Below, one piece after another: positions 25,053-51,939 of a stretch of 64,000 nt of DNA. The DNA comes from a phage, in the sequence record NC_101842.1; one strand, written 5' to 3'. The translations under genes and the position numbers were made by a program. Within the stretch, counting starts at the first letter, position 1. The number at the start of each line of letters is the position of its first letter. Below the pieces are notes generated by a model that saw nothing but the letters and a program-made list of their open reading frames with translations, had not been told where the DNA came from and ran no database searches.

Positions 25053-25172
25053 ATGAGCACTACACGCCAGCACACAAAGGTAACCATCATCGTTTGCATC
25101 ATTGGGTACATCCTGGCGCAAATGTTGATGGGTAGCGCCAACGGTGTCGCAAAATTTTTCTTAAACTTTTAA
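25053..25172 (+). CDS. small hydrophobic peptide (39 aa)
   Basis: Not in ORF track; AAGGAGG RBS; MSTTRQHTKVTIIVCIIGYILAQMLMGSANGVAKFFLNF. Confidence 0.45.
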   Translation: MSTTRQHTKVTIIVCIIGYILAQMLMGSANGVAKFFLNF

Positions 25173-25225
25173 TTGACAAGCTAACTTAAATCGATATAAT
25201 AAGCACATAAACGGGAAAACTTCCC
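25173..25225 (+). promoter_or_regulatory. sigma70 consensus promoter plus 5'-UTR hairpin
   Basis: TTGACA, 16 nt, TATAAT; hairpin GGGAAAACTTCCC. Confidence 0.6.
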
Positions 25226-25251
25226 AGAACACACAAAAGGAGAAAAACACC

Positions 25252-25593
25252 ATGACTACTATGACCGCCTCAGAAAAAGCTATGCAGATCGCTGAACTGA
25301 AAAAACAGATCGCAGACCTTGAGAATAAGATCGATAACTTTGAAATCGACGAGGACAAGTACGACGAAAACTATGATGAATGGTTAGACGAGATCTACGG
25401 CGAAATTATGATCGGAAACATTTCTTTTCTTCCGTCGCGTATCCTCAAGGAGCTAGATCCTATCGCTTACCGCTGCGGATTTAGCGACTACATCGACAGC
25501 CTGGATATTGAGGACGATGAAGAATACCAGGAATTACAGACAGAGTTAGAAGAAGCAAAAGAAGAGCTTGCGGAGCTGGAAGAAAACGAGTAA
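25252..25593 (+). CDS. acidic coiled-coil hypothetical protein
   Basis: AAAAGGAGAAAA RBS; D/E-rich. Confidence 0.65.
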   Translation: MTTMTASEKAMQIAELKKQIADLENKIDNFEIDEDKYDENYDEWLDEIYGEIMIGNISFLPSRILKELDPIAYRCGFSDYIDSLDIEDDEEYQELQTELEEAKEELAELEENE

Positions 25594-25595
25594 GC

Positions 25596-25640
25596 TTATT
25601 TTTAGATGGCCTTGACACCAGGGCCATCAATAAAGTAAAC
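25596..25640 (+). promoter_or_regulatory. repeated palindromic promoter element, copy 2
   Basis: Near-identical to copy 1. Confidence 0.5.
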
Positions 25641-25682
25641 TTTATACTGTTAACACTGAACTAATGCATAGGAGTTAAAACC

Positions 25683-25928
25683 ATGGCAGCACTAATCACC
25701 AAATATTATGCCCCTACCAACACCAAAAGCGCCCGTATCATGGTAAAAGGCTTCGGACGTAAAAAGGTGTACACCTGGGATTATGCCTTAGACACGGAAG
25801 ACAACTACACCAACGCAATGACCGATTTTATTAATGAACTAAATAAGCAGATCTTGACAAGTTATAAAGTGACCGATATTGCTTATATAGGTGAAGGCGG
25901 GATCTGTTTTGTAGGCATTGTGAAATAG
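25683..25928 (+). CDS. hypothetical protein
   Basis: TAGGAGTTAAAACC RBS. Confidence 0.6.
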   Translation: MAALITKYYAPTNTKSARIMVKGFGRKKVYTWDYALDTEDNYTNAMTDFINELNKQILTSYKVTDIAYIGEGGICFVGIVK

Positions 25929-25976
25929 TTATTTTTTCGGTGGTCCTGGCTGCAGGGCCATCTATAAAGATAATTT
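25929..25976 (+). promoter_or_regulatory. degenerate fourth copy of the palindromic element
   Basis: TTATTTTTTCGGTGGTCC-TGGCTGCA-GGGCCATCTATAAAGATAATTTA. Confidence 0.35.
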
Positions 25977-26002
25977 ATCAACACCATGAAAGGAGAAAGT
26001 AC

Positions 26003-26356
26003 ATGATCAGCGGGGCTAGTTTTATTATTGGCGCTATTGCTACGGCTTTAATTGTAAACAAGATCCAATCTAAAAACGAAAAAGATAGCAACGCGCTCAC
26101 AGAATACCCATTTTGGGTATTCAACGACAACGAAGACTACATAATCAAGTACAAAGATGAGAGAGGCGACCAGGTAACACCGCGACCGATCCCAGCTTAC
26201 AAGATGCAGGAAACACTATACCGCCTAAAGGCCGGAGGCGCAAAGATCGTAGACTTTTGGGGATATGATTGCAAGGATCAGGAGGTCATAAAACGTCGTA
26301 TCCGGGCGATTCAGGCAAATATTGAAATTAGTAAAGGGGAAATTTATGAAAATTAA
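26003..26356 (+). CDS. membrane-anchored hypothetical protein
   Basis: AAAGGAGAAAG RBS; N-terminal helix MISGASFIIGAIATALIV; track ORF trimmed. Confidence 0.55.
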   Translation: MISGASFIIGAIATALIVNKIQSKNEKDSNALTEYPFWVFNDNEDYIIKYKDERGDQVTPRPIPAYKMQETLYRLKAGGAKIVDFWGYDCKDQEVIKRRIRAIQANIEISKGEIYEN

Positions 26357-26543
26357 TTTCGAAAAAATTGTAAAGCGCCCCCACGATTCCGAAGAGCTGC
26401 CGGAACGCCGCCAGCGTAACAATAAACTGAATAAACCGAAAAGGTTCGGGAAGATCTGGAGGAATCACTATGATCGCAAATTACCGGGCCTGCTTTTGGA
26501 ACGTGAACGACAGGCGGAACGATACCGCCACAAAGGCAAATAA
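26346..26543 (+). CDS. small Arg/Lys-rich basic protein
   Basis: ATG after AAAGGGGAAA; overlaps upstream stop. Confidence 0.5.
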   Translation: MKINFEKIVKRPHDSEELPERRQRNNKLNKPKRFGKIWRNHYDRKLPGLLLERERQAERYRHKGK

Positions 26544-26550
26544 CAACCAA

Positions 26551-26580
26551 CGCCCCGCCATTGTGCGGGGCTTTTTATTT
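26551..26580 (+). terminator. rho-independent terminator
   Basis: CCCCGC-CATTGT-GCGGGG then CTTTTTATTT. Confidence 0.65.
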
Positions 26581-26713
26581 CTATCCTACGAATAGCGCCC
26601 CTGGTTGGCCCCACAAACGCCACAAAAGCCCCTACCTATGCAATCCCCTTTCTTAGCCTGAAAACATCACCCAGGACCGTTTTATGGTGTTAAAAATATC
26701 TTTTATTTAAAGC

Positions 26714-26742
26714 TTGACACCTTGGAATCGCCTGGATATACT
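26714..26742 (+). promoter_or_regulatory. sigma70-like promoter
   Basis: TTGACA, 17 nt, TATACT. Confidence 0.5.
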
Positions 26743-26777
26743 AACCACATCAAAGCAAGAAGAAAGGAGTAAACGCC

Positions 26778-27038
26778 ATGCGTAAATTAAAAAATTTTGA
26801 TAAAGTCGATGTTGTCCTGAATAATTTTTACTACTGCAATAATAAGGCCGTTTGGTGGCGTGATAGTTCCACCGATAAAGTTAAAGCGCGCTTTCTCCAG
26901 GGGCACTGGCAAGGCCGCCCAGTGATTAAGATCCGGGGGCAATTGGTAGCGTTTAAAAATTGCCGCCGTGTTGATGACGTTGAAGAGATTCTAAACATTT
27001 TACGCCACAATAATTTAAAAAATAGTGTTGACAAGTAA
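26778..27038 (+). CDS. hypothetical protein
   Basis: AAAGGAG RBS. Confidence 0.6.
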   Translation: MRKLKNFDKVDVVLNNFYYCNNKAVWWRDSSTDKVKARFLQGHWQGRPVIKIRGQLVAFKNCRRVDDVEEILNILRHNNLKNSVDK

Positions 27039-27055
27039 GCCTCAATAAGTATACT
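27028..27055 (+). promoter_or_regulatory. sigma70-like promoter
   Basis: TTGACA, 16 nt, TATACT; followed by 5' hairpin GGCTGGAAAACTTCCCGCC. Confidence 0.5.
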
Positions 27056-27112
27056 TAAACACACAGGCTGGAAAACTTCCCGCCACTAACAAAGAAAATA
27101 GGAGAAAATATC

Positions 27113-27736
27113 ATGACCACCGTTAACATTACCGCAGGTTACAATTTATCTTTCGACGTGCTGACCGACGAACAAAAAGAAAAAGCCGTTGAAATGGTCC
27201 GCGAAAGAGAAGAACACAGCGGGGATAACTTTTTTGCAGAAAGTGTAATTGAATACTATAAAGAATATGTTTTTCCAGAGTATGGCCTTGAAGATACCGA
27301 AGTACATTGGTCAGGCTTTTGGTGCCAGGGTGACGGCGCGTCAATCAGTGCTGAAAACGTGGATTTAGAAAAATTTTTGCGTAAAGTAAAGGCCCTGACC
27401 AAGTTCCGATCAATTCGTCACTTGTTCGGCACAATGCACGATGGCGAGTTATCAGCCAGTGTTGAGCGTGATCCATATAGCCGCTATAGTCACGAAAACA
27501 CTGTAAGCGGATACATTGATACCACCTGGCTAGATCTGACCGCCAAACAAGAAAACAAAGTGGAAGACCTGGAAGAGCTGATCACCGAGACGGTACGGGA
27601 GCTATCCCGCAAGGTTTACGTAGACCTGGAGGAGGCCTATCTTGAACAGTTTACTACCGAAAACCTGATCGGCCTTATTGAGGCCAATGATTGGCGGTTT
27701 GATGTGGATGAATATGGCGAGATGACTTTTTCATAA
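27113..27736 (+). CDS. acidic hypothetical protein
   Basis: TAGGAGAAAA RBS; 207 aa; no confident family. Confidence 0.65.
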   Translation: MTTVNITAGYNLSFDVLTDEQKEKAVEMVREREEHSGDNFFAESVIEYYKEYVFPEYGLEDTEVHWSGFWCQGDGASISAENVDLEKFLRKVKALTKFRSIRHLFGTMHDGELSASVERDPYSRYSHENTVSGYIDTTWLDLTAKQENKVEDLEELITETVRELSRKVYVDLEEAYLEQFTTENLIGLIEANDWRFDVDEYGEMTFS

Positions 27737-27744
27737 ATAAAGTG

Positions 27745-27801
27745 TTGCAATAACCTAAAAACCTGCTATATTAAAACTCAAGGGGGCAAGACGTTTGCCC
27801 C
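27745..27801 (+). promoter_or_regulatory. sigma70-like promoter plus 5'-UTR hairpin
   Basis: TTGCAA, 16 nt, TATATT; hairpin GGGGGCAAGACGTTTGCCCC. Confidence 0.45.
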
Positions 27802-27825
27802 ACACAAAACAAAGAGGAAAACATT

Positions 27826-28206
27826 ATGAAAAACACTACCAAGGCTATTGACACCGTTATGTTTAACCTGGTTACATTCCGTGAAGATATGAAAGATCTT
27901 CCACGTGAAACAGTGTGCGATCACATTGAAAACTATCGCAAACTAATCAAAGAGTTGCCCCTAAAACGTGACCAGTATGCGGCTAACGCTATGCTCAACG
28001 CCATGATCAAAAAGATGATCCAGTGTGATTTAACCCTGGCCTATGACTATGCGGGTGGTCGTTTTGCAGTATACAATCAGCCCGTGCCCGGTATGGGCAC
28101 CACCGAAGAATTGCACGCGCTCAATCTAAAACAAGACGTATGGGATAACATGCCCCGCGTGGTGGTGTGGGCAGAAAGCGGAAAGATTTACGGCGATAAT
28201 TTTTAA
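27826..28206 (+). CDS. hypothetical protein
   Basis: AAAGAGGAAAA RBS. Confidence 0.65.
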   Translation: MKNTTKAIDTVMFNLVTFREDMKDLPRETVCDHIENYRKLIKELPLKRDQYAANAMLNAMIKKMIQCDLTLAYDYAGGRFAVYNQPVPGMGTTEELHALNLKQDVWDNMPRVVVWAESGKIYGDNF

Positions 28207-28270
28207 TCAGGTAACAGGCGGCATATTTGCCGCCTTATTATTAAACAGAACTGCAAAAGAGGTACATAGA

Positions 28271-28642
28271 ATGGAATTTATTATTTTGGCTGTAGTAGTT
28301 GCCTTGTTCAACGCCTGGATCGCTGGCAAGATGGGTAGATCCTCCTTTTTATGGTTTATTATATCTATTTTCCTGGGGGTGGTTGCAACTATTGTACTTG
28401 TTATCCTTGCAATTGTTGACAAGGGGAATAATAGAAAGGGTAAAGTATTTTCAGACCTGTACGACGCTCAAACGTTTGTCAACGCCTATTATAGTGATCT
28501 TCCAGTCTCCCTACGCTGCAGCCTGGCACAACAAGTTTTCGATGAGGCTAAAACCAGAGATCAAGCCCATGAGATATGTTTAACTGAGGCGGATCGCCTA
28601 TTTGAGAGGAATAGAAAATATGTGGGCCAACCGTTTAAATAA
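28271..28642 (+). CDS. membrane protein (two predicted TM helices)
   Basis: AAGAGG RBS; hydrophobic stretches IILAVVVALFNAWIAG and FLWFIISIFLGVVATIVLVILAIV. Confidence 0.6.
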   Translation: MEFIILAVVVALFNAWIAGKMGRSSFLWFIISIFLGVVATIVLVILAIVDKGNNRKGKVFSDLYDAQTFVNAYYSDLPVSLRCSLAQQVFDEAKTRDQAHEICLTEADRLFERNRKYVGQPFK

Positions 28643-28841
28643 TGCCACGTTAATTAATCCCTTTAGTGAAGATTTGAAGCCAGCCGCCTGGCGTGATGGA
28701 TTCAATAACGAACGCTTTATTTTCAAGCCTGATCTTGAGGAATTTTATAACAATGGATCGAACAACGACAGAGATAATTTTTCTTGTGGTGTGCGTAGTG
28801 ATGGTACTCCTGGTGGCCATTGTAAACCACGTCACTACTAA
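28620..28841 (+). CDS. hypothetical protein
   Basis: ATG after GAGAGGA; overlaps upstream gene by ~23 nt in another frame. Confidence 0.4.
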   Translation: MWANRLNNATLINPFSEDLKPAAWRDGFNNERFIFKPDLEEFYNNGSNNDRDNFSCGVRSDGTPGGHCKPRHY

Positions 28842-28862
28842 CAGGGGGGAAAGGGGGAGACG

Positions 28863-28982
28863 ATGACACCCAAGGATAAGCCCCGCACCGATAAGGCGCG
28901 CCGTGTTATGGTATGGCTTGAGATCATCGCCCTTGAAATATTGTTAGGGGTAGGGATGTACTTTATCGCTGTAAGTAACTAA
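28863..28982 (+). CDS. small membrane peptide (39 aa)
   Basis: Not in ORF track; GGGGGAG RBS; MTPKDKPRTDKARRVMVWLEIIALEILLGVGMYFIAVSN. Confidence 0.45.
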   Translation: MTPKDKPRTDKARRVMVWLEIIALEILLGVGMYFIAVSN

Positions 28983-28986
28983 GAAC

Positions 28987-29015
28987 GGCCCCCCGATCAT
29001 GGGGGCCTATCTTTT
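28987..29015 (+). terminator. rho-independent terminator
   Basis: GGCCCCCC-GATCAT-GGGGGCC then TATCTTTT. Confidence 0.6.
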
Positions 29016-29030
29016 AAAAAAAAAAAAAAA
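29016..29030. repeat. A15 homopolymer
   Basis: 15 consecutive A directly after the terminator. Confidence 0.9.
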
Positions 29031-29043
29031 TTCTTCCGGGGTG

Positions 29044-29096
29044 TTGCAATCCGGTCCGGAATGTGGATAATAACAATCAACGGGGAGCTAATCCCC
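29044..29096 (+). promoter_or_regulatory. sigma70-like promoter plus 5'-UTR hairpin
   Basis: TTGCAA, 17 nt, ATAATA; hairpin GGGGAGCTAATCCCC. Confidence 0.45.
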
Positions 29097-29127
29097 ACCA
29101 CCACAAAAACCAGAAAGGAGAAACAAA

Positions 29128-29328: not shown

Positions 29329-29330
29329 AA

Positions 29331-29376
29331 TTTATTTTTAGATGGCCTTGACTCCAGGGCCATCAATAAAGTAAAT
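29331..29376 (+). promoter_or_regulatory. repeated palindromic promoter element, copy 3
   Basis: TTTATTTTTAGATGGCC-TTGACTCCAG-GGCCATCAATAAAGTAAAT. Confidence 0.5.
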
Positions 29377-29722: not shown

Positions 29723-29739
29723 TTTCAGCAGGTGATTTT

Positions 29740-30630: not shown

Positions 30631-30864
30631 ATGATGGAACAAATTAAACGCGCTGAGGCTATTAATGGCAATGTGATCTATTTTGTCAGCAAAAACGAAA
30701 AAGGCGTACCATATGCGGCGGTAATAGTACAACCTGACGGCGATTATTGGTTTACTGTATACGGATCTTATTCTTTCGGGCGTCCGGTTCATGATAGAAT
30801 TTTGAAAGTAGCAAATCCGACCGGGAAAAATATCACAGCAGAAAAATTTTTTGAAAATAGTTGA
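30631..30864 (+). CDS. hypothetical protein
   Basis: AGAGAGG RBS. Confidence 0.55.
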   Translation: MMEQIKRAEAINGNVIYFVSKNEKGVPYAAVIVQPDGDYWFTVYGSYSFGRPVHDRILKVANPTGKNITAEKFFENS

Positions 30865-30916
30865 CATGACCATATAAGACTGTAATATATAAATCAAAAG
30901 GGGGGCAACAAGCCCC
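30861..30916 (+). promoter_or_regulatory. sigma70-like promoter plus 5'-UTR hairpin
   Basis: TTGACA, 16 nt, TAATAT; hairpin GGGGGGCAACAAGCCCC. Confidence 0.55.
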
Positions 30917-30941
30917 ACCAACCACAAAGAGGATAAAAATC

Positions 30942-31121
30942 ATGGCTATTATTGCAAAGACTGAGATCGTAGGCTTAGATTCTATTCTCCTCGCATATGA
31001 GGAAGCTATAGAAATGTATGTGGTTTCCTATGGTGAATATATCCGTGAATATAAATCTATTGATCTAGCTTTTGAATGTTATATTCGCCAGGTCAATAAA
31101 GCATATGATGATTATCGTTAA
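30942..31121 (+). CDS. small hypothetical protein (59 aa)
   Basis: Not in ORF track; AAAGAGGATAAAAATC RBS behind promoter and hairpin. Confidence 0.5.
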   Translation: MAIIAKTEIVGLDSILLAYEEAIEMYVVSYGEYIREYKSIDLAFECYIRQVNKAYDDYR

Positions 31122-31203
31122 AATAGTTTGACAATAGTCAACAATCTGGTAAAGTGTACTACATAGCGCGGGAATACTTCCCGCCATTAATGAGGGTAAT
31201 TTA

Positions 31204-31341
31204 ATGAAAACTTTCAACGCAACAGCCTCGACAATTGGTTATATTATTACAGTACAAGCCGTGGATCTGGTAGCAGCAGCAAACAAGATTAAAAAGATGA
31301 TTCCGCCAGGTAGTGAATTTTCCGTTTGGGAAGTAAAATAA
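31204..31341 (+). CDS. small hypothetical protein (45 aa)
   Basis: Not in ORF track; promoter-hairpin-RBS cassette nearly duplicated at the next gene. Confidence 0.45.
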   Translation: MKTFNATASTIGYIITVQAVDLVAAANKIKKMIPPGSEFSVWEVK

Positions 31342-31424
31342 ATCTTGACAATAGTTTATTACTTGATAGGCTGTATTTCGTAGGGCGGGGCAATAAGGCA
31401 ACGCCCATTAATGAGGGTAGAATC

Positions 31425-31529
31425 ATGTTAGAGAAAATTTTCACGGTTGTAGTAGTTGGCCTGGCATTATCGGTTGGAGTGGTTGCAACTATGGCTAACA
31501 TGATCCTATCTTCCCACGGTATCGGTTAA
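31425..31529 (+). CDS. small hydrophobic peptide (34 aa)
   Basis: MLEKIFTVVVVGLALSVGVVATMANMILSSHGIG behind a duplicated cassette (TTGACAATAGT...hairpin...AATGAGGGTA). Confidence 0.45.
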   Translation: MLEKIFTVVVVGLALSVGVVATMANMILSSHGIG

Positions 31530-31530
31530 G

Positions 31531-31755
31531 GTGAATCAAATGATCACGAATAAGACAGGTAAAACAGAATTTTTACGCGGCTTGCAAATAGGTAAGCCTG
31601 AGATCTGGCATTGCACTAAAACACCACGTGACGAAATGAAAGACTTCACCGCCACGCTGCAACGGGTAAAGATATCCATCGCGCAGAAAAAGGCCTTGAT
31701 AGTGGTGGAAGGTGAGATCCCTCAAACCGTTGTTATAGTTGAGCGTACAGCATAG
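31531..31755 (+). CDS. hypothetical protein
   Basis: GTG start directly after upstream stop. Confidence 0.5.
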   Translation: MNQMITNKTGKTEFLRGLQIGKPEIWHCTKTPRDEMKDFTATLQRVKISIAQKKALIVVEGEIPQTVVIVERTA

Positions 31756-32133: not shown

Positions 32134-32268
32134 GTGAAAAAGATAATCATTACCTTGGGGATTGTGGCGGGATCGCTGGCGCTCTTTCCCCTTATGGTTA
32201 GATATGTGCTGATCAGTATTGTCCTGGTGGTCAGTGATCTACTAGAAACGGTTGGCACCTTGTTTTAA
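32134..32268 (+). CDS. possible small membrane peptide (44 aa, GTG start)
   Basis: Hydrophobic ORF; no clear RBS. Confidence 0.3.
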   Translation: MKKIIITLGIVAGSLALFPLMVRYVLISIVLVVSDLLETVGTLF

Positions 32269-32487: not shown

Positions 32488-32518
32488 AAACAGGGCTTGC
32501 AATGGTCCTGTTTTTTGT
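32488..32518 (+). terminator. rho-independent terminator
   Basis: AAACAGG-loop-CCTGTTT then TTTTGTTA. Confidence 0.5.
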
Positions 32519-32530
32519 TATACTTATTAC

Positions 32531-32578
32531 ACGGCAGGCACCTGGCGACGGGGGGAGACAATCACCGGGCCTGCCTGT
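32531..32578. repeat. inverted copy of the GC-rich GTCTCCC element seen at 23.2-23.4 kb
   Basis: GGGAGACAATCACCGGGCCTGCC is the reverse complement of GGCAGGCCCGGTGATTGTCTCCC at ~23245; the left half matches the second 23.4-kb copy. Confidence 0.6.
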
Positions 32579-32601
32579 CATATAAGAACTATAAAAACCG
32601 T

Positions 32602-32660
32602 TGACATCTGCCAGGTGGTGGGGTAACATTTATCTTGAAGGGGCAAAAGTGCCCACACAA
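32602..32660 (+). promoter_or_regulatory. sigma70-like promoter plus 5'-UTR hairpin
   Basis: TTGACA ... TAACAT; hairpin GGGCAAAAGTGCCC. Confidence 0.45.
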
Positions 32661-33282: not shown

Positions 33283-33301
33283 TACAACAAGATGAACGGT
33301 C

Positions 33302-33327
33302 AGGGGCTTAAAGCCCCTTTCTTTTTG
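33302..33327 (+). terminator. rho-independent terminator (end of + strand island)
   Basis: AGGGGC-TTAAA-GCCCCT then TTCTTTTTG. Confidence 0.7.
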
Positions 33328-33929
33328 TCTTCTCTTTTCCTACCATAAACGGCCCTACCTGGCAAGTGGAATAATTGACGAGCCATCAATCCCACACACT
33401 GTACAAATATACATGGAAAATAACTATTGCATAATTTTTCATTGTGTGGTAGCAAGGCCATTTTTACCCGTTTTACCTTCCAAAATTGCACGTAATGCCG
33501 CTATTGCACAAATTTTAACCTGATGCACATCTCCAATATCTTGTCAACAACTAAAAATCTTTATAAGTCATGCACTTACATAACCACAAAAGCGTGTTCT
33601 ACGTGAAAAATCGAGTATAACTATAGCCGCCAGATCTCAGAATTTACGTACGCTCACCAGTCTATAGCCTGCTAAGTATTTATTCCAACCATAGAATAAC
33701 GGAATAGTCAATACCTGCATAAAATAATTATTCGTGTAAACTGCATAACATAAATCGGCTAGGATGTCAACATTTTTCGTAAACAGCTCGAAATTATAAC
33801 GGTGAGTTATAATAAACAGAGAAATCTTTAGTCGTCTAATGTTTACTGTACATTACTATACTGACTGGAATCATTAGATGACTAAGAGAAAGATAAGAAA
33901 TCATTAACAATGCAATTGTTTTATTCGTA

Positions 33930-34115
33930 ACAATAAGGCAACTATGCAAACGAATGGCATGGCGCGACGGAGTCGCGACATAATATAAAAGCAGTAACCA
34001 TCACCCCCGTGATAGTTTGTCTGCAAACTATTAATCAGATCATAGTTGCCTTGTATTTAGTTAATCATGACATAACAAGCAAGGCAACTATAGATCTGCT
34101 AATAGTTGCCCTGCT
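33930..34115. repeat. iteron cluster: AAGGCAACTAT motif x4 (two direct, two inverted)
   Basis: Sites at ~33935 (+), 34042 (-), 34081 (+), 34102 (-); the last two form a 9-bp-arm palindrome around AGATCT. Confidence 0.6.
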
Positions 34116-34194
34116 TTTATATTATGTCATGCTAATTATAATCAGTGCGATTATTGTCATGTATAATTATTGTCATGCAAACGAATGGCATGGC
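33944..34194. repeat. 20-nt exact direct repeat ATGCAAACGAATGGCATGGC
   Basis: Copies at ~33944-33963 and ~34175-34194. Confidence 0.65.
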
Positions 34195-34199
34195 TGATT

Positions 34200-34295
34200 A
34201 TCGGTGTGTAAACAGTCAATCATGTAAATGGTTAGCATGTGAACAATCAGGAATGTAAACAATCCAGTGTGTAAACTAATAGGTGTGTAAAAGTG
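34200..34295. repeat. array of GTGTAAAC-like motifs
   Basis: Six copies (GTGTGTAAACAG, CATGTAAATGG, CATGTGAACAA, GAATGTAAACAA, GTGTGTAAACTA, GTGTGTAAAAG) at 11-22-bp spacing; more copies at ~33731, 34546, 35195, 35270. Confidence 0.6.
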
Positions 34296-34849
34296 TCATG
34301 TTGTGTCAGTTAGGTCACATTATGTCAGACAAGTTTTTCCCCTCTTTGTCAAGTGCTGCATGAAAAATTTACAAGCTTGTATGGTAGCATTTTTGCGGCC
34401 CTGTTTACATTCAGGAGTGTATGTATAATCCTTGGTGTGTGGGCGTTTAGACGTCTAGACGGTTGGAAGTATGCAGGTCAATATCTAATCTATTGGCTGC
34501 TAACTATATCCCACACAAATGATAAGAAATATAATTGTTATATGCGTAAACTGTAACTCATGTTATCAATCCCTGTATGTATCGCCAGTGGTGCGCATAA
34601 TGGGTATTATGTTAAATTGCCCGTAATGATAACTATTCTCACAATGATAGGTATTCTCATTCACCCCCACAAGATAGGTTGCAAATGTTGTGCCACTGTG
34701 TGAACGGCCTAGCCTATTAATTTGCCTCACTGCCTTGATATTTGAGAATTGTTATAAGAATGAGAAGTATTCCCATTTCGTCCGCCTGGCAGCACTCCTG
34801 TAGGTCAGGTCAAAATCGTGGTAGAATTGGGCCTGTTCAGATATTTCTG

Positions 34850-35065
34850 GCTGACTCTTCAGGTCTGTGTGGGAAAAGCCAACCTCTCCGGCGGGGCATG
34901 GGGTCATGACGGGAAAATTGCAGGTCAATTAAAAAATTTACGTGGTGTATGAAGCGCTCTTCAGGTAAGGCATGTATTATGGGATGAAACCCTCTTCAGG
35001 CAATGATATTTGTGGGTGTGATATTTGCTGGAAAGCCAGATATGACGGGACTCCCGGCGGGGCAG
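34850..35065. repeat. degenerate ~140-bp tandem repeat with CTCTTCAGG and CCGGCGGGGCA motifs
   Basis: CTCTTCAGG at ~34855, 34957, 34992 (also 35406, 36056); CCGGCGGGGCA(T/G)GGG at ~34888 and ~35055; GCAGGTCAAT at ~34473 and ~34920. Confidence 0.5.
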
Positions 35066-35766
35066 GGGTAGTACAGACAGGGAAAATATGGAGGATGTGG
35101 TTGGGTAAATTGATCAGGCAGGTAGAGTATGGAATATGTTACAGGTATGTTAAATAGGGAGGCTGAATATCTGTAGGATTTGTGTGTAAAATCAAAGACT
35201 TAAGTGGTGTTGTGGTATTTTCTATAAATAATTCAAGTTTAATAGGTAATATTTGTCTCTATTCGCTTTGTGTGGTAAACAGATTCAGATGAGATTGGTT
35301 TACAAGTGTATACATAATATACAAATTAAAGATACAAGAAACCCCCCTCCCCCTTCGGCTACCATTCACCTTTTCCTCTGACTGGTACTTAAACACTTAT
35401 TCAGACTCTTCAGGTTATCACCCATATATCATATGGCAGTGACTGGTGTCCTCCGGCCCCTCTTTCGTCACCCGTCCGCTTCGCCATGCTAATGCCATAG
35501 CCAATGGTTCGGTTGTTCACCCTGCTCACTCAGGTGTATCTCCATACCCCTTCAAACCGAAGAGAACAGAAAACCCGAATTACTCGGTAAAAGAAAAGAG
35601 AAGAACTTAATTTTATCAGGATAGGCAAGAATGTCAAGGCATGACTGCTCACTAAACAAGCAAACAGTCATGTGTGGGAGGTAAGTGATTGTGGTGGTGG
35701 GAAATTTAGTTGAAAGATGTGCTACAGGTGCGCTTCCAGCACTTTAGCAGGGCAGCTAATTGTGTG

Positions 35767-35982
35767 TCAGTCCAGCGGTTCATCCTCTACTTCACTGAAA
35801 TCAATGTTCATGGTCTCTTCCCAACCATCGATCTCAGCACAAGAGTGGAGTTCTTTAGGACTTACTCCCAAAGCATCAGCAACAGAGTCCATATTTAACA
35901 CCTCTGGCAGGTATGATTCATCGAATTCAAGGTAAATCAGGCCACGAGTGTTGTCAGCTCCACCAAATATTTCTATCTTCAT
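35767..35982 (-). CDS. acidic hypothetical protein
   Basis: First gene (lowest coordinate) of the - strand array. Confidence 0.55.
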   Translation of the reverse strand: MKIEIFGGADNTRGLIYLEFDESYLPEVLNMDSVADALGVSPKELHSCAEIDGWEETMNIDFSEVEDEPLD

Positions 35983-36103
35983 GAAATCTCCTCTGGAAAT
36001 GAGAGTGTGAACAGGGTTTTATACGTTCCGATGCACAGGAATTATGCACGTTTGCCTCTTCAGGTCATGCTTTAGCATGAGGAACCTGTGTGGGCTCGGT
36101 GCT

Positions 36104-36316
36104 TCATAGTCTACCACCCCTGAACTCTTCGTGCTCAGGCATAATAGAGAACCAGATATCTACGATGTCCTCCCACGTCAGGTCATCAGCCTCAGGATCT
36201 GTCTGGGACGAAGATGAAGAGTCCTCAGAATATAAGTTTTCCTCTTTAACTGGCTCATCCAAGGGACATATGGTCACTCCTTCGGATGTCTCTTCAGATA
36301 CATGTGTGTTGATCAT
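36104..36316 (-). CDS. acidic hypothetical protein
   Basis: ORF in - strand array. Confidence 0.55.
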   Translation of the reverse strand: MINTHVSEETSEGVTICPLDEPVKEENLYSEDSSSSSQTDPEADDLTWEDIVDIWFSIMPEHEEFRGGRL

Positions 36317-36414
36317 GTTCCACCCGTGAGTATTCCGGCAACAGCCGCTATGGAAGTAATGATCATCAGGATCACCACTAAAACTTCAGACAATGTTCTC
36401 ATTGTGTATTCCAT
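36313..36414 (-). CDS. small hydrophobic peptide (33 aa)
   Basis: Not in ORF track; MEYTMRTLSEVLVVILMIITSIAAVAGILTGGT; stop overlaps downstream start (ATGA). Confidence 0.4.
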   Translation of the reverse strand: MEYTMRTLSEVLVVILMIITSIAAVAGILTGGT

Positions 36415-36619
36415 ATTCTCCAAACTGTGTGGATACTATCACGGTAGCGGTAATGTGTCAACAGAAACGCCGCGAGGGTTTGGTTAAAATCCGAGCGTAT
36501 GGTGATTTGGGTCAAAACGGACGTGCGTTCTCGCTACGCTCGAAAGAGAGATTTGTTTGTAGGAAGCTCTTAAACGCTCTGTAATGAGATTATCTGTCCA
36601 AGGTATGCAATCGTGCACC

Positions 36620-37699: not shown

Positions 37700-37951
37700 T
37701 TAACGTTCTACAAAAATACCGTTCAGTTCAATAACCAGGAATTTCTGGTCTTCACTATCGTCTCGTGCCAGCACCTCACAGACGTATCGGTCATCCCCAT
37801 CATCATCGCAGTCAAATACAAGACTGAGGACTTTATCATGGTAAACCTTCGCCACTACCGCCTCGTAAGTATTGCCGATTGTGAATCCAAGATAATCTCC
37901 GATGCATTTGACAACAACATGGTCTCCAGCATTTAAGTCAATCTTCGTCAT
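37700..37951 (-). CDS. hypothetical protein (DDDGDD motif)
   Basis: ATG (MTKIDLNAGDH) after AAGGAG; track ORF 37700-38017 trimmed. Confidence 0.55.
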   Translation of the reverse strand: MTKIDLNAGDHVVVKCIGDYLGFTIGNTYEAVVAKVYHDKVLSLVFDCDDDGDDRYVCEVLARDDSEDQKFLVIELNGIFVER

Positions 37952-38106
37952 TACTGCGCTCCTTGGGTAATAATACTGTATGTAAAACTTTAACCAGAGA
38001 TGTGAATAACGCCCCAAAACACACCGATAGCGCTAAAACAGACAAGGCCATCATTAAAGCTTCAGTAAAATCAGTCATTCCTCACCTCTTGTTAGTCACT
38101 ATACTA

Positions 38107-38370: not shown

Positions 38371-38459
38371 ATAAGCACCTTACTGAAATACAAGACACAG
38401 TGTTAAGGTTACTGACCAGCAAATAATTAGCAGGACCATTGCAACCTTGGCAAGATTTA

Positions 38460-38747
38460 TCATAGTGCCTCTAAGATTTCATATCCTTCAGGTCGAAATA
38501 CAAGCCACTCCGTGGCTCCGTTTGGTCGATACGCTTTATACAGAACAACCTGATCTCGGCACATGCACATGGCTACATAGTTTTCATCCACACCTGCAGC
38601 CTGCATTGCATCTTCTTCTCCGGCAACTGCTTTGCTTACAACTTCCTTGGTAGGCAGGTGTGCGATCAGCTCGTCACCATCATTAATTCCAAAATGACTG
38701 AGTTCTCCATTGGTATCTTTAATCTTAATCTTAACCAGATCTTTCAT
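38460..38747 (-). CDS. hypothetical protein
   Basis: ORF in array. Confidence 0.6.
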   Translation of the reverse strand: MKDLVKIKIKDTNGELSHFGINDGDELIAHLPTKEVVSKAVAGEEDAMQAAGVDENYVAMCMCRDQVVLYKAYRPNGATEWLVFRPEGYEILEAL

Positions 38748-40850: not shown

Positions 40851-41120
40851 TTATTCCTCTACAATCTCATACACATCAGGAGTTACAATCAATTCTTCTC
40901 CGTTACCCGGTGCAACAAACACCACCAAACCTTCAGGTGTGTGCTTTTTAGCCATCTCGATAACATCTTCTCGCAGAGCTGGCTCCATCAGATCAAAACC
41001 TTCACCCAGGGCATCACGAACCACCTTCATATAGTCCACTGGTTGTGCTTCAACAATCATGCCTTCAACCAGTCCACAGTTTTTGTCTGCCAGCTCAGTT
41101 TTGAATAATTTAATTTTCAT
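40851..41120 (-). CDS. hypothetical protein (MKIK-type N-terminus)
   Basis: ORF in array. Confidence 0.6.
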   Translation of the reverse strand: MKIKLFKTELADKNCGLVEGMIVEAQPVDYMKVVRDALGEGFDLMEPALREDVIEMAKKHTPEGLVVFVAPGNGEELIVTPDVYEIVEE

Positions 41121-41150
41121 TTAGAGGTCTCCTCAATTATTTGATATTAA

Positions 41151-41252
41151 TAGCCGTAACCTAACACATTAACTACAACTGCGATTGCAAACATAATTTC
41201 AAAGCATGCAATCTCTACATTTGGGACTAATTTCTTAATCACACCCATTGTA
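41151..41252 (-). CDS. small hydrophobic peptide (33 aa)
   Basis: Not in ORF track; MGVIKKLVPNVEIACFEIMFAIAVVVNVLGYGY; GAGG RBS. Confidence 0.4.
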
Positions 41253-43132: not shown

Positions 43133-43425
43133 TCTCCCTCTACCGTGGTAGGATTGTCAGTAAGAAATTGAGCATTGGCTGGAGGCACGCCTGACATTTT
43201 CCACACAACCATAAGTTTGTAACCAGGCACTCTATTAAGTGCAGATCGAGTAGAGTTTGTGCACGTATACTTTCGCTTTCCAAACCCGTTCTCCATCATA
43301 ATCCAGTACCCAGTATCTTTGTCACCAGGTATCGGTAGACCACCTTCATCAACCCACTGAATGGACCACGGCACGATGGCTACAGCTTTATATTTAAACT
43401 TTTTAAACCACTCAAAAAGTTTCAT
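43129..43425 (-). CDS. hypothetical protein
   Basis: ORF in array. Confidence 0.6.
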   Translation of the reverse strand: MKLFEWFKKFKYKAVAIVPWSIQWVDEGGLPIPGDKDTGYWIMMENGFGKRKYTCTNSTRSALNRVPGYKLMVVWKMSGVPPANAQFLTDNPTTVEGD

Positions 43426-43432
43426 AATTCAG

Positions 43433-43522
43433 CCTCGCATAGACATAATCACTATAAACAGGCAAACAATGAATCCGAATGCCACGCCACCCATAAACGT
43501 TAATATTGATGCAATCATAGTC
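43433..43522 (-). CDS. possible small hydrophobic peptide (~29 aa)
   Basis: Not in ORF track; MIASILTFMGGVAFGFIVCLFIVIMSMRG; coordinates approximate. Confidence 0.3.
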
Positions 43523-43706
43523 AATCAGCCTCGCTTGGCAACTCTTCTACCTTAACATGCCGAAAAGTGTTACCGTAATGGTTGATCCATGACATCAGCT
43601 CGCTTTCTTGCTCTTCCTCTGGGATGAACTCTCGAATGCTGACAAGTTTTAAGAAAACCCAATCACAATCTGCACCCATTCTACCAGACAGGCAATAGTG
43701 CTTCAT
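43521..43706 (-). CDS. hypothetical protein
   Basis: ORF in array. Confidence 0.5.
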   Translation of the reverse strand: MKHYCLSGRMGADCDWVFLKLVSIREFIPEEEQESELMSWINHYGNTFRHVKVEELPSEAD

Positions 43707-45080: not shown

Positions 45081-45262
45081 CCCTCATCGCACGTCTGATA
45101 TAACCACTCTATAAAATCTTGATACCATTCGCCCTCTGAGCGCTCCGTAGGCCAATAATCTTCACCCTCTCGTGCATTAAAATCTGAGTATTCAACTTTC
45201 CACTCCTTTACCAGCTCGTGGAGAAGGTTTTCAGCCTGCTCTAAAGATTTATTTTTTACCAT
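45077..45262 (-). CDS. hypothetical protein
   Basis: ATG (MVKNK) after AAGGAG; track ORF 45077-45280 trimmed. Confidence 0.5.
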   Translation of the reverse strand: MVKNKSLEQAENLLHELVKEWKVEYSDFNAREGEDYWPTERSEGEWYQDFIEWLYQTCDEG

Positions 45263-45354
45263 TGCTGTCTCCTTTTTCAAGATAGTTATACATCAGAACT
45301 GCACCACCTAAGATGGCTACCAGTAACAATACCCCAGATAGCATCTCAATAAAC
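45247..45354 (-). CDS. possible small hydrophobic peptide (~35 aa)
   Basis: Not in ORF track; MFIEMLSGVLLLVAILGGAVLMYNYLEK...; overlaps downstream start; coordinates approximate. Confidence 0.3.
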
Positions 45355-45481
45355 ATGGCTTGAAACACTGGAAGGCCTCCCTAAATTAACGCACCATTTT
45401 AAATACATGCTCTTTTCCCATAAAGGTGCCTGGCTAAGATCTGCGTAGAACGCAATCTCTTTAAGAACAGTATAAACAGTT

Positions 45482-48040: not shown

Positions 48041-48091
48041 GCAAATCTCCAGATCATAAAAGCCCTCCGAAGAGGGCTTTAGAATTAATGT

Positions 48092-49138: not shown

Positions 49139-49198
49139 GAGAAATCCTTAATATTGGAAGTTGAAAGCTATTTATTTAAACCTGATTCACATTTACCT

Positions 49199-49510
49199 TT
49201 ATTTAGCAATCACTATGGAATACTTACGATTGTCAGAAGCATCACAACTCAATGATTGCCAGTCTACCACATACCACGTATCATTGTCAACAATTACTTT
49301 ATCGCCTGTTCTGTAGCAGGTGCTGCTTTCAATAATTCGAGACTCGATAAAGAATCTGTGTCGGCGCTCACGTAGCAACGCTAAGTTGATTATATTACCA
49401 CCACTGTCCTTGATCCACACATTCTTGGATCCTTTATTTGCCAAAATTGTCTCACCGTTGTAGACGAACAGGCAGTATATTTTATTCAGTCTCTCTTGTA
49501 TTGTAGCCAT
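49199..49510 (-). CDS. hypothetical protein
   Basis: ATG (MATIQERL) after AAGGAGAAGGAG; track ORF 49199-49636 trimmed. Confidence 0.5.
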   Translation of the reverse strand: MATIQERLNKIYCLFVYNGETILANKGSKNVWIKDSGGNIINLALLRERRHRFFIESRIIESSTCYRTGDKVIVDNDTWYVVDWQSLSCDASDNRKYSIVIAK

Positions 49511-49614
49511 ACTATCTCCTTCTCCTTGTTTTGTCCGATGATAATATCTAAAGCTTACCTGTTTGTCAACAACTGTTTTAGATATTTTAAGGGTGGAATA
49601 ACCACCCTTCTGTA

Positions 49615-50403
49615 TTACTCGGAAACAGGGGTCCAAATATGATTTGCACGATCTTCAATAAGATTGAGTGCAATCTGACGACCCAACCCGGAACGAACGA
49701 CATCGTCTGGACTATCAAAGCTAATCATTCCAACCTCAGGATCTGGATGACGAGTAAAGAAATCCGTCACCCATGCGAGGCCAGATTTACCAGGGATGTC
49801 ACGTTGGCTATTATCACCCATAATTACAAGGGTGGCTTGATCAGAGATCCTTGTGATAATTGACAACATTTCTTCAGGGTTAGTTTGCTGTGCCTCGTCA
49901 ATCAGGACAAAGCATCGCTCATCGAAACTACGACCACGAATGCTTTCAACTTCACAAATCTCGATACGACTGTTCTGACCGTCTCCCAGCATTGCGGTAA
50001 AAGCACCTTTGCCAACACGACGACAAATCGTGTCCATCATGCTTCGAAGATAGGGCCACAGTTTCTGCATTGCATTTCCGGGTTTAAATCCTGAAGTCTT
50101 TCCTGTCTGGACGTAAGGACGTGCAACAATGATCTTATCAATCTCGTTCTTACGCAGAAGATCACCTGCATATGCAGATGCCATAAATGTCTTACCGGAT
50201 CCAAACACACCGTTTACAATAATAATCTTACGTGACCCTAGATAATCAAGATACTTTTGCTGCTTCTTATTCATTGGTCGGAGAGCTGGAGCGGTGTGCT
50301 CTCTTTCGTCAGCAAATTTCTCAGCAGCCTTACGCAGGCGATCAGATTTGCGAGCCTCTCTAGCTTCATCACGCATGCGTTTTGTTTCTTTAGCTCGACC
50401 CAT
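49615..50403 (-). CDS. phoH: PhoH-like ATPase
   Basis: Walker A GVFGSGKTF; blocks VARPYVQTGKTSGFKPG, IRGRSF, IDEAQQT, MGDNSQRD. Confidence 0.85.
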   Translation of the reverse strand: MGRAKETKRMRDEAREARKSDRLRKAAEKFADEREHTAPALRPMNKKQQKYLDYLGSRKIIIVNGVFGSGKTFMASAYAGDLLRKNEIDKIIVARPYVQTGKTSGFKPGNAMQKLWPYLRSMMDTICRRVGKGAFTAMLGDGQNSRIEICEVESIRGRSFDERCFVLIDEAQQTNPEEMLSIITRISDQATLVIMGDNSQRDIPGKSGLAWVTDFFTRHPDPEVGMISFDSPDDVVRSGLGRQIALNLIEDRANHIWTPVSE

Positions 50404-50441
50404 GTTGGGACTCCTTTCAGATTGAGATGTGCCAAGTACTT

Positions 50442-50792
50442 TTACTGCAACAGTTTTTCAATAGCCGCTTCCATGCTGCTTGCAACAGCCTGAACTCGGA
50501 TATTCATCTCTTCTTGGTGGATCAGCTCCTTAAGCTCTTTAATGGTAAATTCTTTAGAGAAACCTTCCACCATAATCTTGTGCAAGGCTTCTTGCGTGTC
50601 TACTTGCAAGAACTTTTCCAGTTTGTTGGCAGAGGCTTCTAAATCAGCCCGAATACGAGGGTCATCTGTGCGATTCAGCATTAGGCGTAAGCCATCAAGA
50701 TTAGTAGAAATAGCATCTGCATGTTGAGTAACTAACCGTGGCAAAATGAGATCTACAAACTTATTAGCCAAATCGATACGTTCTTGTGTCAC
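50442..50792 (-). CDS. hypothetical protein
   Basis: GTG start overlapping upstream stop. Confidence 0.55.
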   Translation of the reverse strand: MTQERIDLANKFVDLILPRLVTQHADAISTNLDGLRLMLNRTDDPRIRADLEASANKLEKFLQVDTQEALHKIMVEGFSKEFTIKELKELIHQEEMNIRVQAVASSMEAAIEKLLQ

Positions 50793-50902
50793 TGTTGCAC
50801 CCCCTCTTCATCTTCATGATGTTTATTTTCACGCTTGTGTTTTTTCTTAAGCTCAAGCGCAATCTCTTTCTTGTACGCCTTCTTCAAGGCTTTTTTAGCC
50901 AT
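50789..50902 (-). CDS. small Lys-rich basic protein (37 aa)
   Basis: Not in ORF track; GAGGAGG RBS; MAKKALKKAYKKEIALELKKKHKRENKHHEDEEGVQQ. Confidence 0.45.
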   Translation of the reverse strand: MAKKALKKAYKKEIALELKKKHKRENKHHEDEEGVQQ

Positions 50903-50964
50903 TTGGCACCTCCTCTGCTTTCATTACGACAATTATAACCGACTTAACAAAGCTTTGTCAACGA

Positions 50965-51438
50965 TTAGTCAACCTGAACCCAACCATCTGCTACCTTTTT
51001 AAACATTCTTTGGTTATCACTGCCTCTAAAGGGTTTTTTGGTGGGGTTATCTTTTTCGTACTTACCGTCCATAATGTAATCAACACTATCTTTAATGTAA
51101 TCGGGGACTTCTTCAAACAAATACCCTGTGTACACCCAGATAGTTTTTGTGTTGCCGAAGCGTTCACGGATAGCGCAAATGATTGAATACATACCATCAA
51201 TATTGTAAGGTGCTAAAGGCTCTCCACCGCATAATGTAACGCCGGTAATATGGTTTGGTTCTATAGAGCTAAGTATGCTCTCGATTGTGTCATTTGTTAA
51301 CGGTTCCCCTTTAGCGGGGGACCAAACACTTTTGTTTTGGCAACCGACGCAGTGATGTGGACAACCAGAACAGAACACCGTTGTCCTGATACCTGGGCCG
51401 TCAACCATGCTACACTCTATAATATTGACAACATTCAT
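50965..51438 (-). CDS. nrdG: anaerobic ribonucleotide reductase activating protein (radical SAM)
   Basis: Cys cluster CSGCPHHCVGC near N-terminus; adjacent to nrdD. Confidence 0.8.
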   Translation of the reverse strand: MNVVNIIECSMVDGPGIRTTVFCSGCPHHCVGCQNKSVWSPAKGEPLTNDTIESILSSIEPNHITGVTLCGGEPLAPYNIDGMYSIICAIRERFGNTKTIWVYTGYLFEEVPDYIKDSVDYIMDGKYEKDNPTKKPFRGSDNQRMFKKVADGWVQVD

Positions 51439-51671
51439 TCCTTACCCTCTTTGAGATAGGGATATTCAGGCCCACAATAAGCTCTATCTAAGAAAACAGC
51501 TTCTTCCCCTCTGGAATCAGTAGATCTATAATACCCATCACCCTGGTAACTAACGAACCAGTAGCACCCATCATTACTTTCTACTGTTGTGGCTCTGTCC
51601 GAATGAAAGATAATTTCGTAATCCTTACCGAATGTAAACCATCTGTTAGCTTTTACACAGACACCTATCAT
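51435..51671 (-). CDS. hypothetical protein
   Basis: ATGA overlap with nrdG. Confidence 0.55.
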   Translation of the reverse strand: MIGVCVKANRWFTFGKDYEIIFHSDRATTVESNDGCYWFVSYQGDGYYRSTDSRGEEAVFLDRAYCGPEYPYLKEGKE

Positions 51672-51822
51672 AAGGAACCTCTCTTCTGTGGTGTGCTTCT
51701 ATTCAAGATAAACTTATAAAAGTCCATTTGATGAAGCCGTATAACTTTTTATACTTACGCTTCAGTGCTAACAATTTTATCTTGATTTTCTTGATAGATT
51801 TCCGCATTTCGACCCCTTATGC

Positions 51823-51939
51823 TTATAAGTACTCCGCATCGCATTCAGGGCAATGCCAAATAAAATCGTCCAGTGCCTTGCACCAACGAAGATTGCAATG
51901 ACAGCCGCACTTGCAAATTTTATAAATACCTGTAGACAT
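51823..51939 (-). CDS. small Cys-rich zinc-finger-like peptide (38 aa)
   Basis: Not in ORF track; GGAGG RBS; MSTGIYKICKCGCHCNLRWCKALDDFIWHCPECDAEYL. Confidence 0.45.
   Translation of the reverse strand: MSTGIYKICKCGCHCNLRWCKALDDFIWHCPECDAEYL

Follow-up and report, generated by a model that had tools for sequence, protein, structure and literature searches.

Small, mostly hydrophobic protein-coding genes between the larger genes of a Vequintavirus genome: a comparative analysis

Do the gaps between the larger genes of a large virulent coliphage hold genes of their own, encoding peptides of fewer than 60 amino acids, or are the short open reading frames (ORFs) seen there chance frames in regulatory spacers? 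The question is raised by a 64,000-nucleotide stretch of phage DNA (NC_101842.1; the whole stretch is referred to as the window), in which a sequence-only reading had listed 11 short ORFs between positions 25053 and 51939 and had considered at least eight of them plausible small genes, mostly hydrophobic and with good translation signals. All 11 ORFs are present, and this reading is supported by the comparison reported here. We put the probability at roughly 0.8 that the ORFs are genuine small protein-coding genes of accessory ("mainly small ORFs") regions, whose products would act early as membrane-targeted modulators of the host. In the following, each ORF is named after its leftmost coordinate.

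The window belongs to the genus Vequintavirus, which comprises rV5-like Escherichia coli myoviruses. According to megablast, it is 97-99.7% identical to deposited genomes, and its identity exceeds 90% for more than 100 records; the identity to vB_Eco_Alma is 97.3% over 25-45 kb and 99.7% over 36-52.5 kb. The plus strand carries the genes as far as about 33.3 kb; beyond about 35.8 kb, to about 64 kb, they are encoded on the minus strand. The comparison set consisted of 24 loci (cited by L numbers where needed) that represent about 19 relatives with nucleotide identities of 88-100%, and each candidate was aligned together with its flanks; the loci were taken from GenBank relatives, and a search of IMG/VR with the hibernation-factor protein gave two loci. 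In the homologue searches with the shortest peptides, the queries were padded with in-frame upstream residues or X, and only close relatives were matched.

Purifying selection acts on the peptide sequences of the small genes. Among the genomes that have a given candidate, 94-100% keep its frame intact, and the variable sites of the pooled candidates fall on codon positions 1, 2 and 3 in the proportion 43/19/115. The pooled in-frame changes comprise 116 synonymous and 61 non-synonymous ones, where about 22% synonymous would be expected (p ~1e-35), versus 58 synonymous and 293 non-synonymous when the same columns are shifted by one or two bases. The pooled Nei-Gojobori ratio of non-synonymous to synonymous substitution rates lies at 0.09-0.21 against each relative of appreciable divergence. 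More than 40 control ORFs of 25-59 codons, antisense or from the ORF-free stretch, are broken in many relatives and have no synonymous excess; the sole apparent exception (35767-35892) turned out to be part of a real 71-codon gene. Among gap ORFs between larger genes that combine an ATG with a Shine-Dalgarno (SD) pairing energy of -6 or below, 12 lie on the sense strand versus two on the antisense strand. The coding signature is carried individually by nine candidates, namely 25053, 28863, 30942, 31425, 36313, 43429, 45249, 50789, and 51823. Conservation in close relatives, the check that had been proposed from the sequence, came out in favour of 10 of the 11 ORFs, whose frames are not broken. 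The idea that the hydrophobic ORFs are antisense artefacts of lysine-rich genes was rejected, because the antisense frames are interrupted in the relatives.

The small genes have SD sites, and among them are genes behind promoter-like cassettes, genes translationally coupled to their neighbours, and genes gained and lost in the manner of cassettes. The good ribosome-binding sites (RBSs) claimed for them were borne out, since all ORFs scored have an ATG start and an SD pairing energy of -6 to -15.6 kcal/mol. The stop/start coupling with neighbours holds for 43429, 45249, 50789, and, in most relatives, for 51823 with nrdG; it does not hold for 25053, 30942, 31204, and 31425, each of which is preceded by its own sigma-70-type promoter-like site. 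The coordinates given in the sequence-only reading, which stated no strands, are exact for the five plus-strand ORFs and for 36313, 50789, and 51823 on the minus strand. The other three minus-strand ORFs exist, with their positions displaced by 2-4 nucleotides: 41151-41252 is actually 41147-41248, ~43433-43522 is 43429-43518, and ~45247-45354 is 45249-45356 from an ATG or 45249-45368 from a GTG. The description as mostly hydrophobic also proved right, as seven listed peptides have one predicted segment of bilayer length (17-21 residues, mean Kyte-Doolittle value 2.3-2.95). Together with at least two further ORFs, these encode peptides of 27-46 residues with one transmembrane (TM) helix and short polar tails, and the remainder comprises a basic/acidic 37-mer, a 38-mer with seven cysteines, a 34-mer of charge +12, and two soluble mini-proteins.

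On the plus strand, 25053 (25053-25172) encodes a 39-residue single-pass membrane peptide (rV5 ORF193, gp188; PHROG 16391), which is intact in 13/13 genomes, with 15 synonymous and 10 non-synonymous changes (hereafter S/N 15/10), variable sites distributed 9/1/15 over the codon positions, an SD of -11.6 kcal/mol, and full-length occurrence in 112 phage records. Its own sigma-70-like promoter is predicted at 24991-25020 with a hairpin over the -35 box; downstream of 25053, at 25173-25200, lies a perfect consensus promoter of the next gene. The 39-residue peptide of 28863 (28863-28982; rV5 ORF181, gp176; PHROG 13629) consists of a basic N-terminus and a C-terminal TM helix; it is intact in 13/13 genomes (S/N 10/6), non-synonymous changes occur only in the N-terminal tail, and the gene is the last one before a strong predicted terminator (28987-29007). 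A 59-residue acidic soluble mini-protein is encoded by 30942 (30942-31121; rV5 ORF174, gp169), intact in 11/11 genomes (S/N 14/4, p = 4e-6). The 45-residue soluble mini-protein of 31204 (31204-31341; PHROG 29854) is present in some Vequintavirus genomes only, for example in C14, and absent from CarlMeissner and rV5. It was found in 54 phage records, including Phapecoctavirus (subfamily Stephanstirmvirinae; ESCO13, phAPEC8) at 93-100% identity, and a 45-residue homologue of 40% identity occurs in Seunavirus FENT2. In the latter, an Enterobacter phage (L026), the homologue at 501-638 is opposite in strand to all local PHANOTATE calls, which suggests that the local FENT2 annotation is on the wrong strand. 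The next gene, 31425 (31425-31529; PHROG 14631), encodes a 34-residue single-pass membrane peptide (S/N 7/1) that also occurs in ESCO13; its second allele, MKQKLIDAVILVIALGIGLIATMANMILSSNGIG, corresponds to rV5 ORF173; in this allele, the TM half differs and the C-terminus ATMANMILSSxGIG is kept. One further plus-strand gene that had not been listed, 32134 (32134-32268; rV5 ORF170), encodes a 44-residue single-pass membrane peptide with divergent alleles; it is about 84% identical in nucleotides to the CarlMeissner allele over the alignable part, the hydrophobic core motif is kept, and the S/N of 10/13 comes from four sequences only.

Several of these genes are organized as cassettes. A repeated module, consisting of an AT-rich stop region, TTGACA-16 nt-TAnnnT, a GC-rich hairpin, a GAGG-type SD, and ATG, is located before 30942 (promoter and hairpin at 30861-30941), 31204 (promoter, hairpin, and SD at 31128-31203), and 31425 (the same elements at 31345-31424), and further promoter, stem-loop, SD, and small-ORF start arrays are predicted at 24991-25052, 50961-50903, and 52005-51940. 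According to Arbiol et al. (2010, PMC2839356), PeSL cassettes in the hyperplastic regions of T4-type phages contain, behind an upstream stop, a sigma-70 promoter and a GC-rich hairpin that may precede the promoter, lie inside it or follow it; an SD and a small ORFan's start come next, and recombination between cassettes shuffles the small ORFans. Our comparison with PeSL covers these approximately six cassettes, with the boundaries detailed for one slot (31122-31530). Depending on the relative, this slot is empty or occupied by a gene of 45, 75 or 81 codons; a 221-nt difference from CarlMeissner is bounded by a repeated hairpin/SD segment. In addition, a 589-bp block of 88% identity is common to the window (31168-31753) and Phapecoctavirus ESCO13 (L025, 665-1250); it carries 31204, 31425, and the next gene, and its left breakpoint lies inside a promoter-associated hairpin. 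The variability of the slot, the bounds of the 221-nt difference, and the ESCO13 breakpoint fit PeSL-type cassette shuffling.

Among the minus-strand genes, 36313 (36313-36414; PHROG 34195) encodes a single-pass membrane peptide of 29 or 33 residues, the second ATG at 36402 being the likelier start. It is intact in 15/16 genomes, with S/N 12/7 versus 3/16 and 5/15 out of frame, and a promoter-like site precedes it at 36461-36433. A 46-residue single-pass membrane peptide outside the original list is encoded by 37938 (37938-38078; rV5 ORF156), intact in 17/17 genomes (S/N 18/14, p = 1.6e-4). A possible 27-residue hydrophobic ORF, 38380 (38380-38463; MINLAKVAMVLLIICWSVTLTLCLVFQ), overlaps the upstream stop with its start as ATGA and is open in 21/21 genomes; its S/N is 10/13, its variability equals that of the flanks, and it is annotated in none of the annotated records whose feature tables were examined. 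The 29-residue single-pass membrane peptide of 43429 (43429-43518) lies in a 96-nt indel (region 43419-43528) flanked by a 10-nt direct repeat, GCGAGGCTGA, which supplies the SD for 43429 and for the next gene. The gene is cleanly missing from six genomes, including the two most divergent ones, and in these the upstream gene ends in ...SEAEL and overlaps the next start. After genomes had been added, its S/N was 9/5 with no change at codon position 2 (p = 0.002); it was found in 90 phage records, being unannotated in most of those listed, and its only PHROG match is a weak one to an unrelated family.

Farther along the minus strand, 45249 (45249-45368; rV5 ORF131, gp126; PHROG 15251) encodes a single-pass membrane peptide of 35 residues from ATG 45356 or 39 residues from GTG 45368, the latter having the better SD (GGGAGG with proper spacing). 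It overlaps both flanking genes and shows S/N 21/6, with variable sites distributed 2/4/21 over the codon positions (p = 1e-8), and a 3-nt insertion in the Aya genome (L011) preserves the frame. The lysine-rich 37-residue protein that had been predicted at 50789-50902 (rV5 ORF118, gp113; PHROG 7670) has a net charge of +5, a basic N-terminus, and an acidic C-terminus. This gene is intact in 16/16 genomes (S/N 12/4), is the first one after a perfect TTGACA-18-TATAAT promoter (50961-50932) whose -35 box is part of a palindrome, and overlaps the start of the next gene with its stop. A 41-residue homologue of similar composition, with an AY-KE-LE-K core, occupies the same position before the PhoH operon in L018 and L019, contigs whose NrdG is 51% and 85% identical to that of the window, respectively.

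The cysteine-rich peptide that had been noted beside nrdD is encoded by 51823 (51823-51939, minus strand; PHROG 20137), which lies between nrdD and nrdG. The 38-residue protein contains seven cysteines (CxCxCxC...C...CPxC), all invariant in 15 genomes and in five divergent variants, and its two histidines are not ligands, because they vary. The cysteine pairs are arranged like knuckles about 15-20 residues apart, with CPxC as the second and CxC, or CxxC followed by CxC, as the first; in divergent variants, CxCxCxC is changed to CxxCxCxC, and some have an added lysine-rich N-terminal tail. The frame is intact in 15/15 genomes, with S/N 14/9 versus 6/17 and 4/19 out of frame. Upstream, a promoter is predicted at 52005-51976 with a hairpin between -35 and -10. 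The stop of 51823 overlaps the nrdG start as ATGA in 11/15 close genomes as well as in L018 and L029. The gene is likewise found between nrdD and nrdG in L018 and L029, whose NrdG is about 50% identical to that of the window, and in L019, whose NrdG is 85% identical; variants with other N-termini occur in contigs with an NrdG of 51% identity. A match in Pfam was not found, and a HMMER profile search of 1.84 billion representatives returned the phage clade itself and two spurious repeat-protein matches; the AlphaFold2 model is of too low a confidence to be usable (predicted local distance difference test, pLDDT, 52; predicted template-modelling score, pTM, 0.22). The PHROG 20137 label, "ribonucleotide reductase", was probably taken over from the adjacent gene and does not reflect any test. 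The constant location between nrdD and nrdG together with the ATGA overlap is the linkage expected of an accessory subunit, and it is this linkage alone that suggests a tie of 51823 to ribonucleotide reductase. The idea that 51823 supplies a missing zinc site to NrdD in trans was rejected, because NrdD has its own zinc ribbon (CxxC...CxxC) and glycyl-radical motif (RVSGY).

The same locus is a hot spot of insertion. An insertion (51435-51822) lies between 51823 and nrdG in the window as well as in rV5, CarlMeissner, and A135; it contains a 78-residue gene and 51703 (51703-51807, minus strand; rV5 ORF115, gp110), which was not in the original list and encodes a very basic 34-residue peptide (net charge +12). 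ORF 51703 was found in four of the relatives examined and in L019, with an underpowered S/N of 2/1. In A135 (L004), a 310-residue gene of unassigned function is inserted between nrdD and 51823, and HNH endonuclease genes split nrdD in FV3 (L010) and L019.

The small genes are not a discovery in themselves, since GenBank, PHROGs, and the rV5 genome paper already contain them. Ten of the 11 ORFs are annotated in the BASEL phage Bas48 CarlMeissner (MZ501054), nine identically and 41147 with one residue different, 31204 being absent. Ten strongly match PHROG families of their own; the matches to PHROGs 16391, 13629, 14631, 34195, 15151, 15251, 7670, 20137, and 29854 are full-length with E-values of 1e-19 to 1e-37, and all nine families except 20137 are labelled "unknown function". 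In Table S3 of Kropinski et al. (2013, PMC3606486), rV5 ORF131, 145, 156, 170, 173, 181, and 193 are given as "membrane protein, 1 TMD" (one transmembrane domain) according to TMHMM/Phobius, and ORF115, 118, and 174 are also listed. Five of these seven single-domain peptides correspond to ORFs of the sequence-only list (131, 145, the 173 allele, 181, and 193). The small genes of rV5 and Bas48 occupy the same positions and are orthologues at 80-100% amino-acid identity. The rV5 annotation differs in that 43429 is unannotated, 36313 and 51823 are covered by ORF162 and ORF114 in other frames, and 31204 is absent, as it is from Bas48; 36313 is likewise unannotated in FV3, where another frame or a gap covers it, and is annotated in Bas48. 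At ORF114 (51777-51974) and ORF162 (36316-36420), both on the minus strand, the substitution pattern favours the short frames 51823 and 36313, and three rV5/RefSeq calls (ORF114, ORF162, and the unannotated 43429) are thus probably wrong or missing. Three ORFs annotated in Bas48, at 36019-36117 and 36484-36618 on the minus strand and 32515-32604 on the plus strand, are interrupted in many relatives, have no synonymous excess, and are probably not genes. The practical value of the analysis lies in curation, that is, comparative evidence for small genes and corrected annotations; as a discovery it carries small weight, being a correct but ordinary finding.

Other features of the region were noted along the way. 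The plus- and minus-strand gene blocks converge on a 2.4-kb ORF-less stretch (33300-35750), in which no reading frame is conserved in any relative, and its rV5 equivalent (104013-106618) is unannotated. The part at 33400-34300 is AT-rich (34-36% GC) and contains ATAGTTGCC repeats in pairs; between 34852 and 36186, a CTCTTCAGG(T/C) motif occurs about six times. The stretch could be an origin or a regulatory region. About 250 nt at 35410-35660 are unusually conserved (about 10 variable sites among 16 genomes) and contain a strong minus-strand promoter-like site (35637-35610, TTGACA-16-TAAAAT with TG), followed by a short hairpin and T-run (35587-35575). This segment, which has no match in Rfam, may encode a small non-coding transcript; a scan of the whole window against Rfam found nothing. 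About two dozen GenBank records (MG0656xx; here L004-L007 and L012-L015) that bear the name "Campylobacter phage", are flagged UNVERIFIED and lack annotation share more than 94% identity with this E. coli phage; they are ordinary Vequintavirus genomes, and their Campylobacter host label is doubtful.

How firmly the frames can be taken as genes depends on whether they could be chance frames in regulatory spacers that seem conserved through close kinship or through the promoters, terminators and RBSs beneath them. Short ORFs could indeed persist by descent among relatives 88-100% identical, and several adjoin promoters or terminators; moreover, 38380 evolves at the rate of its flanks, 41147 has no synonymous excess, and the three Bas48-annotated ORFs mentioned above look non-coding. 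Against chance frames stand the third-position and synonymous excess that is lost out of frame, the breakage of same-size control ORFs in the same region, the retention of length and motifs in divergent alleles and homologues, and the in-frame 3-nt indel of 45249. The comparative data disfavour chance frames for 10 of the 11 ORFs, and we regard this explanation as very improbable. ORF 41147 (41147-41248, minus strand; rV5 ORF145, gp140; PHROG 15151), a candidate gene for a hydrophobic 33-residue peptide that starts 9 nt after the hibernation-factor gene, needs separate treatment, as it might mainly be a cis-acting RNA or DNA element (a structured leader, an internal promoter, or an antisense transcript) with a secondary or untranslated frame. 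Its S/N of 6/12 is not significant and lacks the coding signature, and in its final 24 codons a single third position is variable (1/24), versus 97/240 (40%) in three neighbouring genes. In a 1.1-kb alignment of 21 genomes, variability is lowest over the 120 nt at 41111-41230, which take in the final two-thirds of the ORF, the spacer, and the beginning of the next gene; this pattern indicates that the nucleotides themselves are under constraint. A promoter-like TTGACT-16-TACAAT site overlaps the ATG, and the fold of the region is mildly stable (minimum free energy z = -2.3). On the side of a peptide gene are an invariant length of 33 codons in 22 genomes and five protein clusters, with the start codon in 21/22, a strong SD (-9.2), and a clean hydrophobic TM segment; Rfam gives no match for the region, and its lack of variation yields no covariation that could speak for a structure. 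We hold the cis-element explanation to be unlikely, though a serious contender at this one site. The gene that follows (40851-41120, minus strand) is called a second "sigma 54 modulation factor" in several records and belongs to a PHROG family of unknown function.

For genuine genes, the question becomes what they do, and here the reading as early host modulators is weakened by several points, those on 41147 included. ORF 31204 offers no variation to test, and is supported instead by its transfer between phage genera and by the 40%-identical homologue; 51703 offers very little variation for a substitution test. Both of these, together with 43429, are dispensable, because they are missing from many genomes. 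The promoter and TM calls come from consensus or hydropathy scans and are predictions. Searches of the literature on small proteins of Vequintavirus yielded no data on their expression, localisation or phenotype, and none of the small peptides matched a Pfam (apart from sub-threshold matches), NCBIfam or PADLOC family, so that function rests on analogy. As for 51823, its C-terminus is frameshifted in phage Alma and fused by deletion in one metagenomic variant, and scanning just upstream of nrdG at 80 other, diverse viral loci gave no small Cys-rich gene in 76, the remaining four being one homologue, two C-terminal ends of NrdD, and one short unrelated ORF; an accessory subunit would be expected to co-occur with nrdG more widely. 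The chance is about even that 51823 is unconnected with ribonucleotide reduction, being either a small zinc-ribbon regulator in its own right or a passenger in a region prone to mobile insertions. Besides its absence from most nrdG loci, this would agree with the endonuclease genes (HNH and other) and the 34- and 78-residue insertion found there in different genomes, with its own promoter-like site, with an NrdD already complete in zinc ribbon and glycyl-radical motif, and with the plasticity of nrdD that the PeSL study also remarks on (PMC2839356); the nrdD-nrdG position and the ATGA overlap, kept where NrdG is only about 50% identical, speak for a functional link. Some hydrophobic peptides, chiefly those of 28863 and 45249, might alternatively be parts of lysis timing (holin, antiholin or spanin-like). 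ORF 28863 ends the operon begun by the Bas48 "putative holin" (28271-28642), and the rV5 paper (PMC3606486) proposes gp129 (78 residues, two TMDs) as the holin, beside ORF130 and ORF131, with 45249 two genes on and a Bas48 "putative glycosidase" directly upstream of the gp129 gene; a single TM helix with charged tails is also compatible with holin regulators. Yet the PHROG families of all these neighbours have no assigned function, the gene of the recognised endolysin (rV5 gp89) is distant, the promoters are of the sigma-70 and not of the late type, and the sequences have no lipobox or other spanin feature. We consider a lysis role improbable.

Under the preferred reading of early, membrane-targeted modulation, the small genes would be transcribed early by the host RNA polymerase, and the hydrophobic peptides would insert into the E. 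coli inner membrane. There, by analogy, they might bind host envelope proteins concerned with transport, division, DNA entry of competing phages, or defence sensing; PHROG annotation of the neighbouring genes gives no functional context. The Cys-rich protein of 51823 would be a metal-binding partner that is co-made with the NrdG activase. A bolder and rather unlikely proposal combines two parts: the seven-Cys 38-mer would be a third, metal-binding component, so far unrecognised, of the anaerobic ribonucleotide reductase system of Vequintavirinae, stoichiometrically coupled to NrdG, and PeSL-like cassettes would carry membrane-peptide genes between unrelated E. coli myoviruses (Vequintavirus and Phapecoctavirus); separately, 41111-41230 would be a conserved cis element overlapping a peptide gene. 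By rough estimate, about one-fifth of the genes in the 27-kb stretch encode peptides of fewer than 60 residues, about 10 of them predicted to be membrane-targeted. They form a defined set of peptides with which to study how a large virulent phage acts on the envelope of its host in the early stage of infection.

Small single-pass membrane proteins of E. coli (AcrZ, MgrB, KdpF, and CydX) and of phages (T4 Ac) are about 30-50 residues long and have one TM helix; those that have been studied bind larger membrane proteins, and they were found via the same logic of RBS plus conservation. The phage peptides described here are of the same size class with one TM helix, but they have no sequence relationship to these proteins. 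T4 ac is mentioned in PMC13250531. Like the type I toxins TisB, Hok, Ibs, and Ldr, the phage peptides are short and hydrophobic and could depolarise membranes; unlike these toxins, they show no sign of a paired antisense RNA and are encoded in ordinary sense-strand operons with strong SDs, and the curated models of Pfam, NCBIfam, and PADLOC matched none of them to a type I toxin, holin, or known small-membrane-protein family. With the PeSL cassettes of T4-type phages, the cassettes of the window share the order of elements, the insertion, deletion or replacement between close relatives, and the association with nrdD, whereas their lineage is Vequintavirinae, not T4-like, and their promoter and terminator functions are predictions. 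If such cassettes are indeed exchanged between Vequintavirus and Phapecoctavirus, the PeSL-like cassette mechanism is not confined to T4-type phages.

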